From Sedimentisphaerales bacterium (GTDB taxonomy: Bacteria; Planctomycetota; Phycisphaerae; Sedimentisphaerales; SM23-30), in assembly GCA_963666285.1 (NCBI GenBank), contig OY762711.1: a stretch of 64,000 bases of DNA; one strand, written 5' to 3'. The position numbers and the translations under genes were made by a program. The notes beneath the pieces are model-generated. The model saw only the letters and a program-made list of their open reading frames with translations. It was not told where the DNA came from and did not search any database. This document shows, piece by piece, positions 44,264 to 51,335 of the stretch (position 1 is its first letter; each line of letters opens with the position of its first letter).

Positions 44264-46366
44264 TTAGTTTACCGTTGTTTCGTATTTCACGCCTTCCGGC
44301 ATTAGTTCAGGAACATTAACAGATACGCCATAATCTCCAGACGTTTGAGCTGTAGAATCAACAGCGACAAATGAAGTCAAATCACTCATAAGATTATAAT
44401 TTAATGCCGTTACAAGTATTTCAGAGGCGATGCTATCATTACCTGAAATTACCAATTTATTATTCAACATCTCGATCTTTTTGCGAGCCCAGATGGCAGC
44501 AATGCCGTCATGACGAGTATTGTCACTGAATTCAGCAGGAACGGTATATTCCTGATCCAGGCTACCAACCCTACCGCTGACAGTAATATTGCACTTTTTG
44601 GTATTTTTACACTTTCCGGTTATAACTACTGCCCTGCCGGCAAAAAGGTCTGGGACTTTTTGGGGCCATACTTCGGCAACTTGCATATCACCAAAATTGA
44701 TAGAAATATCTGTCAGTGCAGGATGGGCAATAGTTTCATAGAAATTATCAACTGGCTCGACCGGACTGTCATTGTGACCAATATACGATACAGCACCCTG
44801 GCCGATAGCTGCCATACGATCAAGCAGATAACGATTAGGCGAACTGCCTATACCGAAGCTGAAAATACGGCTTTCACCGAGCTTTTCACTGATGGCTTTG
44901 AGAATCTCAGCTTCATTACCAATATAACCGTCAGTCATAAATGAAACAATTCTGAAGCGTTTAGGATCATGCTCGAAATCAAGAGCCGCCTTTATTCCTT
45001 CGATCATCATAGTTCCACCACTAACATTCAATTGTTTTACATACTTTAATCCTATATTTATATTCTCCTTAGAAGCAATAACAGGTTTGCTACCAAGCCT
45101 GGAAGCATTATTACTGAACTGGATAATCTGAAAACTATCATCCGGTCCCAAACGCTTAAGAGCACGACTAATGGCTTGTTTCGAAATATCCATTGGCCAG
45201 CCATTCATACTGCCGGAACAGTCAAGTACAAAAATCATCTCCATTGGCACTCGCTTCAGCTGTGTAATGCTTTCCGGCGGATACAGCATCATAGTAAAAT
45301 AACTCCCGTTTTCATCGGAAGTTGTCATTATACCGGTTTTTACCTTGTCACCTGCAACGTTATAACGAAGTACAAAATCCTTGTTTGGGATAGTATCGTT
45401 ACGGGCGATCTGCACATTTACCCGGCTGTCAGAGTTGTATTTTTTCTCAATTATATGGCTGCTGCATACCAAATCTTCAATTTTTACACCGGCATCAATA
45501 TTAACTGCAAGTGAGATATCGTGTCCGCTTCGCTGATCCGGTTTGAGGTAATGAACTTCGCTTGACTGACTGCTGGTTCCGTCTGGTGTGCCGTGGGCAA
45601 CAGCTGCTACGCCGTCAGTTGTATGCGGAGGGTTAAAACGCGGTCCTACAACCATTGGAAAGACAAACTCATACCAACCGTCTTTATAAGCCAGAGTATT
45701 GAAATATTTTATATTGATATCGATAGCTTTGCCTGGCTCTATATTGGCAACTTTCTGGGTGAAAATATTAGGTCGCTGCTGAGTTAGCAGGCTAGCTGTA
45801 TAACCTAACCCACGAGCCTGTTCATAAATCTTCTTAGCTTCTTCTTTTTCTCTTATTACACCTCGAATAGTTCGATCCCCTATTGTCATCAAAAAATCAT
45901 TAACTGCAGCATTTTGAGGTAAAGGAAAGACATATTTCGCTTCAATCTTAACAGCATAAGGATTATGAAACTTCTGCCTTACTTCTACGGTTGCAATATA
46001 ACCCGAGACATTACCATTGACATCAGTATGCTTTAATGGCAATGGTACTTCCTCTTTTTGATCAGGCACCTTCGCAATGCAAGAGCCACTAAGAGGTACG
46101 TCTACATCGCAACGGAAAGACCCTTCACTAATATCAGTTTTTTGTATTACCCATATTTCATCAGCATCAACATTAATAACACCATCTGAACTTGCCAACT
46201 CATGCAGCTCTGCATCACTAAGCTCATTCAGCATACGTCGATTAGCACTCTCAACTGCAAACCTGGCACTTTCTTTGGCTTTATTTAATGCAGGCATAAA
46301 TAATGAAACTATAAATGCAACTATAGCAAGTACAACTAACAGCCATATAATTTTATTGGTTTTCAT
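44264..46366 (-). CDS. VIT + vWA domain protein, paralog 2, with a pilin-like N-terminal helix
   Basis: LPLKHTDV...YVFPLP (VIT); FVLDCSGSM MIDAS motif, MTDG and LMSDLTSFVAVD. Confidence 0.92.
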   Translation of the reverse strand: MKTNKIIWLLVVLAIVAFIVSLFMPALNKAKESARFAVESANRRMLNELSDAELHELASSDGVINVDADEIWVIQKTDISEGSFRCDVDVPLSGSCIAKVPDQKEEVPLPLKHTDVNGNVSGYIATVEVRQKFHNPYAVKIEAKYVFPLPQNAAVNDFLMTIGDRTIRGVIREKEEAKKIYEQARGLGYTASLLTQQRPNIFTQKVANIEPGKAIDINIKYFNTLAYKDGWYEFVFPMVVGPRFNPPHTTDGVAAVAHGTPDGTSSQSSEVHYLKPDQRSGHDISLAVNIDAGVKIEDLVCSSHIIEKKYNSDSRVNVQIARNDTIPNKDFVLRYNVAGDKVKTGIMTTSDENGSYFTMMLYPPESITQLKRVPMEMIFVLDCSGSMNGWPMDISKQAISRALKRLGPDDSFQIIQFSNNASRLGSKPVIASKENINIGLKYVKQLNVSGGTMMIEGIKAALDFEHDPKRFRIVSFMTDGYIGNEAEILKAISEKLGESRIFSFGIGSSPNRYLLDRMAAIGQGAVSYIGHNDSPVEPVDNFYETIAHPALTDISINFGDMQVAEVWPQKVPDLFAGRAVVITGKCKNTKKCNITVSGRVGSLDQEYTVPAEFSDNTRHDGIAAIWARKKIEMLNNKLVISGNDSIASEILVTALNYNLMSDLTSFVAVDSTAQTSGDYGVSVNVPELMPEGVKYETTVN

Positions 46367-46396
46367 AACTAATTCTCCTATGTTAGACTTTCAACC

Positions 46397-48943
46397 CTAA
46401 TGTACTTCCTGAACCGTTGTTTCGTATTTCACGCCTTCCGGCACTGGAACAGAAACATTGACCGTTACGCCATGTTCTCCAGAAGTAACAGTAGCAGAAT
46501 CCACGGCAACAAATGAAGTGTAGTTGCTCATAAGGTTATAGCTCAACGCAGTAGTAAGAATAGCGTTTGAAAGATCTGTTGGACCGCCGGTATTGAGCAA
46601 ATTATTCAATATCTCAATCTTTTTACGAGCCCAGATGGCAGCAATGCCGTCATGACGAGTGTTGTCACTAAATTCAGCAGGAACGGTATATTGCTGATCC
46701 AGGCTGCCAACCTTACCACCAACTGTTATATTGCAGTTCTTTGGACTTTTGCATCTGCCGGTAATAACTACCGCCCTGCCGGCGAATAGATCCGGTACTC
46801 TAGGCGGCCATACTTCGGCAACTTGCATATCGCCAAAATCGATGGATATATCTGTAAGTGCAGGATGGGCAATAGTTTCATAGAAATTATCAACCGGCTC
46901 GATCGGGCTGTCATTGTGACCAATATACGAAACAGCACCCTGACCGATAGCTGCCATACGATCAAGCAGATAACGGTTAGGCGAGCTGCCAATGCCGAAG
47001 CTGAAAATACGGCTTTCACCAAGCTTTTCACTTATGGCTTTGAGAATCTCAGCTTCATTACCAATATAACCGTCAGTCATAAACGAAACGATTCTGAAGC
47101 GTTTAGGATCATGCTCAAAGTCCAGAGCTGCTTTGATACCTTCAATCATCATTGTTCCGCCGCCGCCATGAAGGCCCTCAAGATAGGTAAGCCCTTTTTC
47201 TATATTCTCTTGAGTTGCTTCGATTGGTTTGGGACCAAGCTGAGAAGCATTATTGCTGAATCTAATGATCTGGAAGCTGTCATCCGGTCCGAGGCGTTTC
47301 AGGGCACGGTTAATGGCTTTCTTTGACATTTCAATAGGAAAACCATTCATACTGCCGGAACAGTCAAGTACAAAAATCATTTCCATTGGTACCCGTTTGA
47401 GCTGGGAGATACTTTCCGGAGGATACAACATCATAGTGAAGTAACTTCCGTTATCGTCAGTAGTTGTCATAATGCCGGTTTTTACCTTATTGCCGGCAAC
47501 CTTATAACGAAGTACAAAATCCTTGTTTGGGATAGTATCGTTACGGGCGATCTGCACATTTACCCGGCTGTCAGAGTTGTATTTTTTCTCAATTATATGG
47601 CTGCTGCATTCCAGATCTTCAATCTTTACGCCGGCGTCAATATTAACTGCGAGCGAGATATCATGTCCGCTTCGCTGGTCCGGTTTGAGGTAATGGACCT
47701 CGGTTGACTGTCCGCTGGTACCGTCTGGTGTGCCGTGGGCAACTGCCGCTATGCCGTCAGTTGTATGCGGAGGGTTAAAACGCGGTCCTACAACCATTGG
47801 AAAGACAAATTCATACCAGCCGTCTTTATAAGCCAGGGTATTGAAATATTTTATATTGATATCGATAGCTTTGCCCGGCTCTATATTGGCAACTTTTTGG
47901 GTGAAGATATTAGGCCGCTGCTGGGTTAGCAGGCTGGCCACATGGCCCCGGCTGCGGGCGGCTTCGTATATTTGTTTGGCTTCTTCCTTTTCACGGATAA
48001 CGCCTCGGATTGTGCGGTCACCAACGGTCATAAGAAAGTCGTTTACCGCAGCATTCTGAGGCAGCGGAAAGACATAGCGTGCCTCTATCTTGGTATCGTA
48101 TGGATTGTGAAACTGCTGAACAACATTTACGGTTGCTATATAACCGGCGATATTGCCTGTAACATCTGTATGCTTAAGCGGTAACGGCACTTCCTCGGGA
48201 TTATCAGGCAGCTTAACAACACAACAGCCGCTGACAGGAGTATTATCGTCTACCGGCACTACCGATTTGGCAGTATCAACTTTAGCTATAACCCATAGCT
48301 CATCGGCATTGAAGTTGTTCAAAACAATTTGATTATTGATTGGTGCTTTCCCAAAAGAATACATCTGAGCCATCACACCACCATCCATACCACTAACGTC
48401 ATACCCAACAATACCCTGGCCAGCTGCGATAGGTTTTGCACTCCCCTTTTCAACAGTTGGATATTCTATTTTTTCTACTGGAGGAATTAGATCTTTATCA
48501 ACGGCCATTAAGTGCATTGTAACATTATGGTCCGCATTTCTGGATTTTTCATGCTGAATCTGCCATAACAACGCCTGCGAATACATATTTCTAAGGTATT
48601 TTGCCTGTTCGTTATAAGGGTCTACAGAAAGCAAACGATCTATAGTGTCAATAGCAGCTTGAAACCTTCTTTGCTCTGCAAACTTATTAGCAGTATGGAA
48701 TAAAGTACTTATAACCTGTACTTCTTGAGCTGCTTCTCTAGCTGAATCTCTGGTTTTATCTATTGCTTCAGTATCAGAACTCCCATGTTCATCAGAGGTG
48801 CCTCCCTGATAAGCAGCAGTATCTCCAGGGGCTGAGACGGTACTATTAATATCATTGCCACAGCCTTGAATAAGCAAGAATGCAGGTATTGCCAGCAATG
48901 ATAATAATAATCCAGTAAAAATTGATTTTCTTAGGTTAAACAT
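46397..48943 (-). CDS. VIT + vWA domain lipoprotein, paralog 1, with an N-terminal TPR-like segment
   Basis: IQGC lipobox and the same VIT and DCSGS/TDG motifs as paralog 2. Confidence 0.92.
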   Translation of the reverse strand: MFNLRKSIFTGLLLSLLAIPAFLLIQGCGNDINSTVSAPGDTAAYQGGTSDEHGSSDTEAIDKTRDSAREAAQEVQVISTLFHTANKFAEQRRFQAAIDTIDRLLSVDPYNEQAKYLRNMYSQALLWQIQHEKSRNADHNVTMHLMAVDKDLIPPVEKIEYPTVEKGSAKPIAAGQGIVGYDVSGMDGGVMAQMYSFGKAPINNQIVLNNFNADELWVIAKVDTAKSVVPVDDNTPVSGCCVVKLPDNPEEVPLPLKHTDVTGNIAGYIATVNVVQQFHNPYDTKIEARYVFPLPQNAAVNDFLMTVGDRTIRGVIREKEEAKQIYEAARSRGHVASLLTQQRPNIFTQKVANIEPGKAIDINIKYFNTLAYKDGWYEFVFPMVVGPRFNPPHTTDGIAAVAHGTPDGTSGQSTEVHYLKPDQRSGHDISLAVNIDAGVKIEDLECSSHIIEKKYNSDSRVNVQIARNDTIPNKDFVLRYKVAGNKVKTGIMTTTDDNGSYFTMMLYPPESISQLKRVPMEMIFVLDCSGSMNGFPIEMSKKAINRALKRLGPDDSFQIIRFSNNASQLGPKPIEATQENIEKGLTYLEGLHGGGGTMMIEGIKAALDFEHDPKRFRIVSFMTDGYIGNEAEILKAISEKLGESRIFSFGIGSSPNRYLLDRMAAIGQGAVSYIGHNDSPIEPVDNFYETIAHPALTDISIDFGDMQVAEVWPPRVPDLFAGRAVVITGRCKSPKNCNITVGGKVGSLDQQYTVPAEFSDNTRHDGIAAIWARKKIEILNNLLNTGGPTDLSNAILTTALSYNLMSNYTSFVAVDSATVTSGEHGVTVNVSVPVPEGVKYETTVQEVH

Positions 48944-48991
48944 CTTAAACTCCGAATATTGTAATTGTCTATGTTTTAATGTCTTATAATA

Positions 48992-49449
48992 TTAGTCACG
49001 ATCGGTAAGCCGGTAAGTCATATCAGCTTTTACCTTGTTTCCTTTGGCATCTGCGATGACAACCGGTGTAATTTCGAACTCCGGAGTCTGGTCGCCGGAA
49101 ATCATAAAGTGGAGGCGGGCACATCTGAACTTACCGGAAGGTAATGATTTATCGAGATTGAAAGCGGCAAGTATGATTCTGCCATGATTAAGAGCCTTTG
49201 GGTCGTAATAGCCCGGAGCTTTGAAAGCCTCGCAGTCGCCGCCTTCAACGCCGGAAAGCTTTGCAATACCTGATGTTACCTTAAGTTCGAACTGGTATGC
49301 CGCGATAGACTTATCAGCGGAATCGATTATGATATCGACAGGTACAAACCTGACATTGCTGAAGTCAGCCTGCGGTTCAAGAGCTTTGCCGAAACTGTAT
49401 GTAAGTGCGGTAAAACAAAGGGTTAATATAATAATTGTCATTTTGTTCT
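48992..49449 (-). CDS. Exon 2 of a secreted cohesin-like protein; exon 1 is ATGA at 50172-50169 and the spliced N-terminus is MKNKMTIIILTLCF
   Basis: Signal peptide followed by VPVDIIIDSADKSIAAYQFELK...ARLHF, a cohesin-like beta pattern; the frame is restored exactly by removing the intron. Confidence 0.75.
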
Positions 49450-50168
49450 GTCGAGTAGGCATGTCGCCTCCTTTCATTAATTTAACAAATTCTGAGTTTC
49501 ATTATATTTTGTGCAAGGAAACGCATGCCCCTCACAGAACCGGACTTGAAGATTTCCCTCATCCGGCTCTTCATTAATGCTCACTTTGACGGCTACATAA
49601 GGCAAAGTAATGTGCCTTGTAGAAGTCTCCGATAGAAGACGCTGTGGAACGTTCATGGTTTCTTCCAGTTCAGTGCCTGGCCAATATCCTGTTTCGCCTT
49701 TACACATTAATGCTGACCCCTTCGAGTGCCTCAAACTTCGAAACTCAACAGGCATTACCCTGTTTACTCCTCTACTATGAGTCAGTCCGACTACCAAAAT
49801 GCCATACGGCCGCGTCACGGTTTCAGCTCCTTGGCCGCTTCCTTTCGGAGCACTTCGGTTCTCCCAAGTTCCAATGCAGTCAGTTCGTTTGCCCGCTACG
49901 GACTCAGACCCCGGCTCGTCGATATATGCTCGCCGTATTTCGCATATATCGATATTGGCTTCAGGCATATGAAAACCCTGGCCCGGATGCGATAAGGAAT
50001 AATTTCGGGGCTCAACACCTTCACTTGCGTTGTGGCTGACAAACTCCTTTCCCGGGGCTTCGTACAGTTCGTTACCTCTCTGCACGCCCGGTGCTGTAAT
50101 GGGCGGGTGGCTAGCCCTTACCCATGCCGGATTGGCCGGCTTGACTACATTAGCTTCGCTTGGCGCTC
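49450..50168 (-). mobile_element. Group II intron (719 nt) without an intron-encoded reverse transcriptase
   Basis: Domain V GAGCCGGATGAGGGAAATCTTCAAGTCCGGTTC (49569-49537); domain VI with the branch A 7 nt from the 3' end (CCTACTCGAC); 5' end GAGCG; EBS1 TCATAT complementary to exon ATATGA; short domain IV. Confidence 0.93.
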
Positions 50169-50188
50169 TCATATTATTATCCTTCAAT

Positions 50189-50680
50189 TTAATTTATAAT
50201 CATTGCCAGCTGAGAGTTTAACCGGGCAGCAGCCGCCTGGTCCAGGTTGTTTATCTCAACTGCTTTATTGGCAACTATTTGCACATCAGTAATAGAAAGA
50301 TTATTGTCGTTGTTATAATCCCATTTCCGGTCGTATATGCCCTTGTCACGGATATGGATAGCGAGAGTCATAGCATCGAGTATATCTACACTTCCATCGC
50401 GGTTAACATCCTGCGGGGCAAAGGTTTGGGAATTGTGTAATACAAAGAAAGCCGATATAGCGACAAGCACAATTGCCGCGGCATATCGTAAATAATGTAT
50501 TAGAGGAGATTTACGCCGTTTGTTGAAAGCATCAAAATGAGCTCTGGCTCCCTCTAAAACAGCTCTATCAACATCAAGCGGAAGTTGAGAATCAGTTGTA
50601 AACTCTTTTTTCAATTCGAGTTGCAACTCATCTGATAGTTCCGGGATATCATCAAAATTGTTAATATTATTGTTATCCAT
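50189..50680 (-). CDS. Putative anti-sigma factor: cytoplasmic N-terminus, one TM helix, extracytoplasmic dockerin-like domain
   Basis: Directly follows the ECF sigma gene; YAAAIVLVAISAFFVL TM; DVNRDGSVDILDA...DYNNDNNLSITDV duplicated Ca-binding loops. Confidence 0.78.
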   Translation of the reverse strand: MDNNNINNFDDIPELSDELQLELKKEFTTDSQLPLDVDRAVLEGARAHFDAFNKRRKSPLIHYLRYAAAIVLVAISAFFVLHNSQTFAPQDVNRDGSVDILDAMTLAIHIRDKGIYDRKWDYNNDNNLSITDVQIVANKAVEINNLDQAAAARLNSQLAMIIN

Positions 50681-50700
50681 GGTTTATGGTCTCCGTATAT

Positions 50701-50729
50701 TTAGACCGCAGGTGAGTAAAATAGTTTCA
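50701..50729 (-). promoter_or_regulatory. ECF (sigmaE-like) promoter upstream of the anti-sigma gene
   Basis: The minus strand reads TGAAACT-N16-GTCTAA. Confidence 0.5.
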
Positions 50730-50744
50730 GAAAAATAAGAATAA

Positions 50745-51335
50745 TTACAAGAATAGTAATATCAAAGCTTTAAGGTCACGGATATTTTTAATAGCAGGTG
50801 AATCTTTAAGTTTTTTGAGAGTTCGATAATAAGTTGTCTTCACACTGCTTTCGGATATCTCAATCGCGGAAGCTATCTCGGCGAGTGTCATATCATCAAC
50901 GAACCGCATAAGGAGTATATGCCGCTGGGTATCGGATAGGTTGTCAAGAAGAGAAGCGAGATGTCGTCGCATTTCGTCTTGCGGCGTTTCGCCAATGGGT
51001 AAAGACGTATCAGGGATGTCAAGCGGCAGGTCAACGGATGAGTACCGCCGCTTACGTTCCTGCTGACGGATGACAGTATTCCGTACTGCCGGATACAAAA
51101 AAGATTTCATGCTGGAAGTAAGCGAAAAACCTGGAAACCGCGTATAAAACCACGTAAAGACCTCCTGGCAGACATCAGCTGCAATATTTTCGTCTCTATT
51201 GGCCAAACGCCAGGCAAGCTGGAAGGTCCAGTTTTTGTATCTCAGATATATACGCTCAAACCCTGCGACATCACCTGAATTAGCAATGGCAATATCGGTC
51301 TGGTCCTGAGCGTTAATATTGGAAGCATCTAACAT
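50745..51335 (-). CDS. ECF RNA polymerase sigma factor
   Basis: GDVAGFERIYLRY, AADVCQEVF (region 2) and LAEIASAIEISESSVKT (region 4). Confidence 0.92.
   Translation of the reverse strand: MLDASNINAQDQTDIAIANSGDVAGFERIYLRYKNWTFQLAWRLANRDENIAADVCQEVFTWFYTRFPGFSLTSSMKSFLYPAVRNTVIRQQERKRRYSSVDLPLDIPDTSLPIGETPQDEMRRHLASLLDNLSDTQRHILLMRFVDDMTLAEIASAIEISESSVKTTYYRTLKKLKDSPAIKNIRDLKALILLFL

Follow-up and report, generated by a model that had tools for sequence, protein, structure and literature searches.

A group II intron without an open reading frame (ORF) lies on the minus strand of contig OY762711.1 of a Sedimentisphaerales bacterium (assembly GCA_963666285.1), within the 64,000-nucleotide (nt) stretch that we analyzed and refer to here as the window. 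The intron separates the start codon of a small host gene from the rest of its coding sequence, and the 3' strand of its domain VI, the domain that presents the branch-point adenosine, contains a Shine-Dalgarno sequence (SD) and an AUG in the frame of exon 2. We consider it likely that this SD-AUG is a backup start for the host gene, borne by an intron lineage that targets gene starts. Comparison with relatives beyond the window indicates that the start signal is no local accident.

The start signal in domain VI and its conservation

The 3' strand of domain VI reads AAAGGAGG CGAC AUG CCU ACU CGA C, in which CGAC (49466-49463, minus strand) is the spacer between SD and AUG, and exon 2 follows at 49449 with AG AAC AAA ATG ACA. 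The 16S rRNA of the same genome has the 3' end GGAUCACCUCCUU (CCUCCUU), so that the AAGGAGG of domain VI fully matches the anti-SD. By motif alone the signal is not above chance: AAGGAGG followed after 3 to 9 nt by ATG was found once in the 64 kb, against 0.89 occurrences expected. What lies above chance, judging by the relatives described below, is the position of the SD-AUG, its phase and its conservation.

In a fold of positions 49440-49580, GGCAUGCGUUUCCUU (49529-49515) is paired with AAAGGAGGCGACAUGCC and A49456 is bulged. The minimum free energy (MFE) of this fold is -48.8 kcal/mol (z = -6.0), and none of 200 shuffled sequences was as stable. A 19-bp helix holds both start signals together with the branch-point A. 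Domain VI folded alone reaches -29.6 kcal/mol, among the most stable of the set, with the SD (7 of 7 nt) and the AUG (3 of 3 nt) both paired. The window intron is accordingly predicted to have the arrangement of a structure-sequestered ribosome-binding site, with SD and AUG in a stable helix. An earlier sequence-only reading of the window had placed an AAGGAGG and an AUG at 49462 in this strand, the AUG sharing the frame of exon 2 and the 5' strand of domain VI acting as pairing partner; the letters read as it claimed, the frame agrees, and the fold confirms the pairing.

Relatives were collected from two sources. With the 443-residue intron-encoded protein (IEP; RVT_1) of the local parent intron as query, 495 related contig stretches were found, of which 80 were kept. 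All eight loci with 64-82% IEP identity end in ..AGGA(G/A)..AUAUUAUGYCUACUCGAC, and the metagenome-assembled genomes that carry them are labeled Pirellulales, Phycisphaerae, Lentisphaeria, Victivallaceae, Melioribacteraceae, Ignavibacteriales, and Planctomycetota. Four loci with 51-59% IEP identity have a short domain VI with ACG in the place of AUG and no SD, and among the loci with 41-47% identity, those with a located domain V lack an ATG 13 nt from the 3' splice site (position -13), as read by eye. The second source was a metagenome scan with a pattern for the junction of domains V and VI, which returned at least 120 stretches. A 3' end was recognizable in 71 of the 80 stretches examined, and 61 of these have ATG at -13, exon 2 starting with A in 56 of the 61.

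Pooling all sources and removing duplicates gave 76 distinct domain VI sequences. ATG stands at -13 in 64 of them, and an SD core of at least 4 nt lies within 18 nt of it in 62 of the 64 and one of at least 5 nt in 54; because the scan pattern, GGGGYRT, favors the CAU partner of the AUG, such counts are not population estimates. The spacing between SD and AUG in the relatives is mostly 7-9 nt. As controls, an SD core of at least 5 nt was found in 8.9% of 18-nt windows elsewhere in the loci and on the 5' strand of domain VI in 10 of the 64 sequences. Conservation of SD and AUG in homologous domain VI sequences, which the sequence-only reading had left to be checked, is thus borne out.

Insertion at gene starts, intron anatomy and relatives in the genome

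The 6.35-Mb genome contains eight copies of the 719-nt intron, the window copy included, with 99-100% identity and the same ends. TATGA precedes all eight, and all are inserted after ATG+1, that is, after the start codon and one further nucleotide. Removal of the intron gives an ORF of 86-515 codons starting MK or MN in seven of the eight, and signal- or prepilin-like leaders were read by eye at six host N-termini. A strict gene-start test (an SD-like 4-mer plus a frame that stays open for 100 codons or more) is passed by 363 of 6259 TATGAA sites in all (5.8%) and by five of the eight local copies (P = 3e-5).

The same preference is seen across the lineage. Automatic calls of 5' ends, which included spurious short introns (244-442 nt, and others), were replaced by a set of 26 relatives with ATG at -13 whose 5' ends are confirmed by complementarity to exon-binding site 1 (EBS1). 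Insertion is after NTG+1 in 20 of these, or in 21 if L126, with its short flank ..aataatga, is counted; among the outgroup introns it is so in one of three (TTG+1). The metagenome intron L171 follows TTG+A and its EBS1 is changed to match (UCAAUC with GAUUGA), indicating that non-ATG starts are targeted too. Among 54 distinct downstream exons, 26 have no stop for 80 codons or more, or as far as the contig reaches, in the frame set by the -13 ATG; the corresponding counts for the other two frames are 2 and 7. On this evidence the lineage is often, though not always, found at real gene starts. The phase match is inherent, because insertion after codon position 1 and the 13 nt of the intron's end combine as 13 = 4x3+1. 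The agreement of frame first noticed in the window therefore extends to a lineage that inserts after NTG+1 with its AUG fixed at -13.

These observations suggest the following course of events. EBS1 (UCAU..) pairs with ..AUGA, so that the intron lands one nucleotide past the start codon. Insertion would part the ribosome-binding site and AUG of the host from the coding sequence, and domain VI would supply a replacement SD and AUG at -13, in the codon phase of the insertion point; an unspliced transcript would for that reason still encode the host protein, with MPTRQ replacing MK. The altered N-terminus would, in most host genes of the genome, belong to a leader peptide that is removed anyway. 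We infer that translation starts at the domain VI AUG.

The intron extends from GAGCG (50168) to ...CCUACUCGAC (49450) and contains no reverse-transcriptase (RT) ORF. Rfam model RF02005 (group-II-D1D4-6) matches over its full length (model positions 1-225) at 49899-50135 on the minus strand, beginning at intron nt 34, with 115.9 bits against a cut-off of 49, and RF00029 (domains V and VI) matches at 49450-49571 with 55.5 bits against a cut-off of 40 (Table 1). An A is found at -7 in all 76 distinct domain VI sequences of the relatives. EBS1 and the 5' exon covary in relatives (UCUUAA/UUAAGA, CCGUGU/ACACGG, UCAUGG/CCAUGA, and UCAAUC/GAUUGA, the last at a TTG start), and this covariation places the 5' splice site after ATG+1. 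With domains I-IV and V-VI, a bulged branch A and pairing between EBS1 and intron-binding site 1 (IBS1) all recognizable, the feature is by its sequence a group II intron. Its 5' end is GAGCG, where the consensus is GUGYG; relatives have GUGCG, GUGUG or GAGUG. No conserved IBS2 adjoining IBS1 was seen by eye in the eight local target sites. The loop directly 5' of the EBS1 hairpin (49985-49995, minus strand) reads UUCCUUA, which is anti-SD-like and matches the AAGGA(A) of the host genes over 4-7 nt, at variable distance, at the eight sites; because real gene starts carry an SD, such pairing is not separable from the plain presence of an SD.

Table 1. Positions of the intron, its start signals and the host gene in the window
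Feature	Positions	Strand	Basis
ORF-less group II intron, 5' GAGCG ... CUACUCGAC 3'	49450..50168	-	Rfam matches, eight same-end copies, EBS1-IBS1
Domain VI, 84 nt: 3 bp, bulged A, 7 bp, bulge, 9 bp, ~40-nt loop	49450..49533	-	fold
Domain V	49538..49571	-	RF00029 alignment
Bulged branch-point adenosine A49456, 7 nt from the 3' splice site	49456	-	MFE fold; A at -7 in relatives
Domain VI AUG, 13 nt from the 3' splice site, frame of exon 2 (MPTRQNKMT...)	49460..49462	-	sequence; ATG at -13 in relatives
Shine-Dalgarno AAGGAGG, 3' strand of domain VI, 4 nt 5' of the AUG	49467..49473	-	sequence; 16S complementarity
5' strand of domain VI, GGCAUGCGUUUCCUU, partner of SD and AUG	49515..49529	-	fold
Upstream AUG overlapping the read-through stop (UAAUG), same frame as domain VI AUG and exon 2 (MKGGDMPTRQ...)	49475..49477	-	sequence
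Read-through frame from the host ATG over the whole ribozyme, 231 codons, UAA (49479-49477) then UGA	49477..50172	-	ORF, shuffles
EBS1 UCAUAU, domain I hairpin loop, complementary to exon 1 AUAUGA	49967..49972	-	covariation in relatives
Host ATG plus codon 2 position 1 (A), 3'-terminal 4 nt of exon 1	50169..50172	-	intron-less homologues, sequence
Shine-Dalgarno-like GAAGGA of the host gene, 7 nt 5' of its ATG	50180..50185	-	sequence
Exon 2, small protein with signal-peptide-like N-terminus (MKNKMTIIILTLCFTALTYSFG when spliced)	48992..49449	-	ORF/translation

Homologues of the host gene that lack the intron occur in other genera (41-53% identity); they begin MKN.., MKR.., MKK.., or MKY.., and one of them reads ATGAAGAAC, in which nine bases are identical to the spliced window gene. 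No Pfam family was found for the host gene. An orthologous empty site was not found, three same-genus genomes giving no match and the other-genus matches being those just mentioned; in four DNA contig runs there was neither an intron-less allele nor an exon-exon joint, and the loose ends proved to be flanks of other copies. The longest ORF of the host gene, 48992-49477 on the minus strand, begins at the AUG located in the loop of domain VI (MKGGDMPTRQ...), its first 10 codons being intron. Gene callers will mis-start genes of this kind, since the start of the longest ORF is intron sequence, an annotation trap. On the minus strand of 44264-51335, an ECF-type sigma factor (50745-51335) comes first and a type I dockerin-domain protein (50189-50680) second, followed by the intron-bearing small secreted protein and two paralogous VIT-VWA proteins (46397-48943 and 44264-46366).

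Other relatives in the genome are a 648-nt deleted intron (L019), two 1929-nt IEP-bearing introns and one 3' fragment. The genome has two intact 443-residue IEP genes, identical to each other at 441 of 443 residues, and these could act in trans on the ORF-less copies; near-identical copies without an IEP ORF, next to an intact related IEP gene in the same genome, are what a trans-mobilized ORF-less family would present. The IEP is an RT in which Pfam recognizes RVT_1 only, and no endonuclease domain was found. Its match (E = 1.7e-30) to the solved RT T.el4h, which we take to be of class IIB1, is weaker than those to LtrA (4.4e-45) and to a 427-residue group II intron RT (6.8e-44).

The two IEP-bearing introns, L017 and L018, have UCUUAA as EBS1; L017 follows the matching UUAAGA, where there is no start codon, and L018 follows UUAUGA with one mismatch. 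In the ORF-less family, EBS1 is retargeted to AUAUGA. Some ORF-less copies are paired in neighboring genes on the same strand, L003 with L004 (G000:C1:3630861-3634543) and L002 with L007 (5266365-5274243), ~2.2 kb and 7 kb apart. The flanks of L002, L019 (L009/L012), and L018 (L010), and the 5' flank of L022, are purine-rich repeats (AGGATGAAGGATGAAGG..., GAAGAGTTAGAAGA..AGCGAG..AGTTTAAATT.TGA) with no ORF behind. The copies in these repeats include one IEP-bearing copy and the 648-nt relative, and a 5' flank is common to L018 and L019; the repeats may be decoy-like or ancestral homing sites.

Pairing, read-through and rival explanations

The AUG is fully paired in the MFE folds of 62 of the 64 sequences with ATG at -13, because it belongs to the branch-point helix. 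The pair of the basal helix at the AUG position is A-U in 52 sequences, G-U in 13, G-C in 9 and another in 2, and the CGU/ACG of the outgroup corresponds to CAU/AUG in the lineage, a compensated change. With the AUG in the helix that presents the branch A, initiation and branching should be mutually exclusive on one molecule throughout the lineage. The SD is a different matter. Only 34 of 62 relatives have 75% or more of it paired, and many domain VI forms of 42-52 nt place it in their terminal loop, so that sequestration of the SD is specific to some families, that of the window included. In the class with a domain VI of ~120 nt, of which 21 of 22 sequences were aligned (L161 was left out), the SD is paired, and each of six pairs of the SD helix has between 1 and 6 sequences with two-sided changes. 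Also conserved in this class are an inner hairpin capped by a GAAA loop (CCGAAAGG) and the elements AAUAUUGUGRCAC, ACAAA, and CCUAAA, and many pairs are compensated. A long domain VI elaboration occurs in distant relatives without the AUG as well, and by these comparisons the long domain VI looks like a structured elaboration.

No dinucleotide shuffle out of 5000 stayed open as far as the 231-codon frame that crosses the window intron from the host ATG. Its UAA overlaps an AUG (UAAUG, 49479-49475), and 14 nt separate the end of this stop from the domain VI AUG. This is the geometry of translational coupling: an upstream frame that ends at a UAAUG overlap near a downstream SD-AUG. While a ribosome stood at the stop (49479), the SD-AUG strand would lie within its channel, and the helix would therefore have to be open. 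In the 719-nt family, then, the likely opener of the helix would be a ribosome that had started at the host AUG. Such a ribosome would read 231 codons and stop at the UAA-UGA in domain VI. For a restart it could then use either the overlapping AUG or, 14 nt further on, the SD-AUG. We regard as doubtful the extension in which the ribozyme of this family is a translated spacer, splicing and translational bypass being mutually exclusive routes between which ribosome traffic decides. The read-through ORF was also considered as a conserved gene and rejected, as its product has no Pfam family and the frame is closed in all relatives; stops in the same frame number 9 in L019, 9 in the first 480 nt of L017, and 16 in L155.

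Several observations weigh against a backup start or against its exposure by read-through. The spacing of 4 nt between SD and AUG in the window intron is short. A single transition separates the AUG from the outgroup ACG, and as the AUG is practically always base-paired, structure alone constrains it; its distance of 13 nt is set by branch-site geometry, not by translation. The pattern used for the metagenome scan, as already said, favors CAU/AUG forms. Five of the 26 verified 5' ends lie away from a start codon (L017, L022, L152, L161, and L168), 28 of the 54 downstream exons have no long ORF in the -13 frame, and the eighth local copy, L002, has no ORF behind it. Twenty relatives close the read-through frame at codon 5-51, 72 or 154, and L019 shares the domain VI of the window intron yet stops at codon 5, so that melting by read-through ribosomes is possible only in the 719-nt family. 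Burial of the SD and an open read-through frame in one young family amount to a single evolutionary event. We therefore hold a switch driven by read-through ribosomes to be plausible for the 719-nt family only, and tentatively even there. The sequence-only reading had proposed such a switch, with the start hidden when domain VI is folded for branching and exposed when it is melted, for example by ribosomes on the read-through frame. As to hiding, its proposal stands for the AUG across the lineage and for the SD in part of it; as to melting, it stands for the open frame of the 719-nt family and does not carry over to relatives. The three N-termini that it listed can all be read in the window, and the third, from the upstream AUG (MKGGD...), is not conserved, being out of frame in L017, L022, and L027 (read by eye).

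The AUG and its purine run might be nothing other than material of the branch-point helix, a structural by-product in an intron that splices efficiently and whose domain VI start is never used. The near-universal pairing of the AUG and its origin from the outgroup ACG by compensated change would fit this, as would the long domain VI of distant relatives that lack the ATG and the chance-level frequency of the bare motif in the window. The SD core, however, is kept across domain VI forms of 42-123 nt that are unrelated in sequence, whether it falls in a loop or in a stem; it invariably occupies the 3' side, at a distance of 4-13 nt from the AUG, and is far more frequent there than in the background windows or on the 5' strand. 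It is found together with NTG+1 insertion and with open frames downstream. We consider a by-product improbable for these reasons. There is likewise only a small probability, in our judgment, that the signal serves the intron itself, with ribosomes shielding the precursor or lariat from nucleases or Rho termination, or holding domain VI open and so tuning splicing or mobility, and with the host product incidental. An association of a group II intron with ribosomes, which may protect the intron from nucleases, is reported in PMC3851717, and the geometry implies that branching is blocked while a ribosome occupies the domain VI AUG. Protection would need neither the match between NTG+1 insertion and the -13 phase nor the excess of long ORFs in that frame (26, against 2 and 7). 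Host rescue and intron protection are in any case not mutually exclusive purposes.

It is also conceivable, if very improbable, that the 719-nt introns are decaying copies that no longer splice, expression of the genes now being left solely to the domain VI start or an internal ATG at 49441 and the read-through frame being a chance property of the master copy. The copies have no ORF and depend on the IEPs of related introns (86-91% identity within the aligned parts), their EBS1 differs from that of the IEP-bearing copies (UCUUAA), and their 5' end is GAGCG in place of GUGYG. Against decay, the near-identity of the eight copies points to movement in the recent past, for which splicing is required; the EBS1-IBS1 pairing, the branch A and both domains V and VI are intact; GAGUG or GAGCG 5' ends also occur in IEP-bearing relatives; and the 231-codon frame was reached by none of the shuffles. 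A backup start for the host gene remains the explanation that we prefer.

Comparison with known systems

The closest parallel is the monophyletic IIB1 family of Michel et al. 2007, which, as described in Gomes et al. 2025 (PMC12584367), is found at initiation or termination codons, in housekeeping genes, and all of whose members have 300-700 nt inserted close to the 5' end, at the base of domain I. The examples given there (Avi.groEL, EcKTE56.groEL) resemble the present lineage in that bacterial introns sit on the exact position of a translation signal and keep a usable signal, UAA becoming UAG in groEL. Insertion at such codons is also what we observe, at initiation codons in all eight local copies and in 20-21 of 26 relatives. 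The account of the family in PMC12584367 makes no mention of a start signal in domain VI. The window intron differs from that account in being 719 nt in all, without the 300-700-nt insertion (the IEP-bearing relatives are 1.9-2.07 kb, including a 1.3-kb ORF). The hosts here are secreted or surface proteins, with signal-peptide- or pilin-like N-termini, and not housekeeping genes, and the IEP is a 443-residue RT without a Pfam endonuclease domain that matches T.el4h less well than LtrA. With no room for the insertion, secreted hosts, a short IEP and the weaker T.el4h match, we do not file the present lineage in the family of Michel et al., which is known here by its description in PMC12584367.

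Two further systems share single traits with the present one. In the Thermosynechococcus elongatus introns (Mohr et al. 2010, PMC2882425), identical ORF-less copies likewise stand beside IEP-bearing relatives in one genome, and some of them lie between two start codons of one ORF; the relevant part of that article places insertions in intron ORFs and elsewhere and does not describe a replacement start signal in domain VI, whereas the sites here are the start codons of host genes. The IIC-attC introns with outward promoters (PMC3001079, in its passages on these introns) are alike in that an expression signal borne by the intron offsets the polar effect downstream. The signal there is a promoter and the target an attC site, in contrast to a ribosome-binding site and start codon in the branch-point domain and a start-codon target here.

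The usual account of bacterial group II introns is that they persist by avoiding genes. A 2015 review lists three target specificities of group II introns (homing sites in mobile DNA, sites after terminators, and attC), none of them at start codons, and a 2020 neighborhood survey, which speaks of "hiding and hijacking", does not mention start-codon targeting. The full-text literature covered, which did not extend to supplements or to Michel 2007, Simon 2008, and Lambowitz & Zimmerly 2011, describes neither an SD and AUG in domain VI nor start-codon targeting of this kind. If our interpretation is right, the lineage would represent a fourth survival strategy, in which an intron lands on the start codons of ordinary genes and is made harmless by a replacement ribosome-binding site and AUG in phase, and the choice between splicing and translation would be coupled to one helix that holds both branch point and start codon. 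It would offer a natural system for competition between the ribosome and ribozyme folding in bacteria, and its design could inspire gene-targeting introns that leave their target unsilenced.

Competition of this sort is known from intron-sequestered ribosome-binding sites (Edgell, Chalamcharla and Belfort 2011, PMC3073962), where, in the part of that article that treats them, a ribosome-binding site is also hidden in a ribozyme and ribosome occupancy is set against splicing. The site there serves intron-encoded ORFs; here it would serve the host gene. Most group I introns, according to the same part, have an in-frame stop right inside the 5' junction, which keeps ribosomes out. The 719-nt family does the opposite and has no in-frame stop for 231 codons. 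As far as the sequences compared can tell, the points specific to the present system are an SD pairing that is not lineage-wide, a compensated ACG-to-AUG change, and a unique 231-codon frame that ends in UAAUG.

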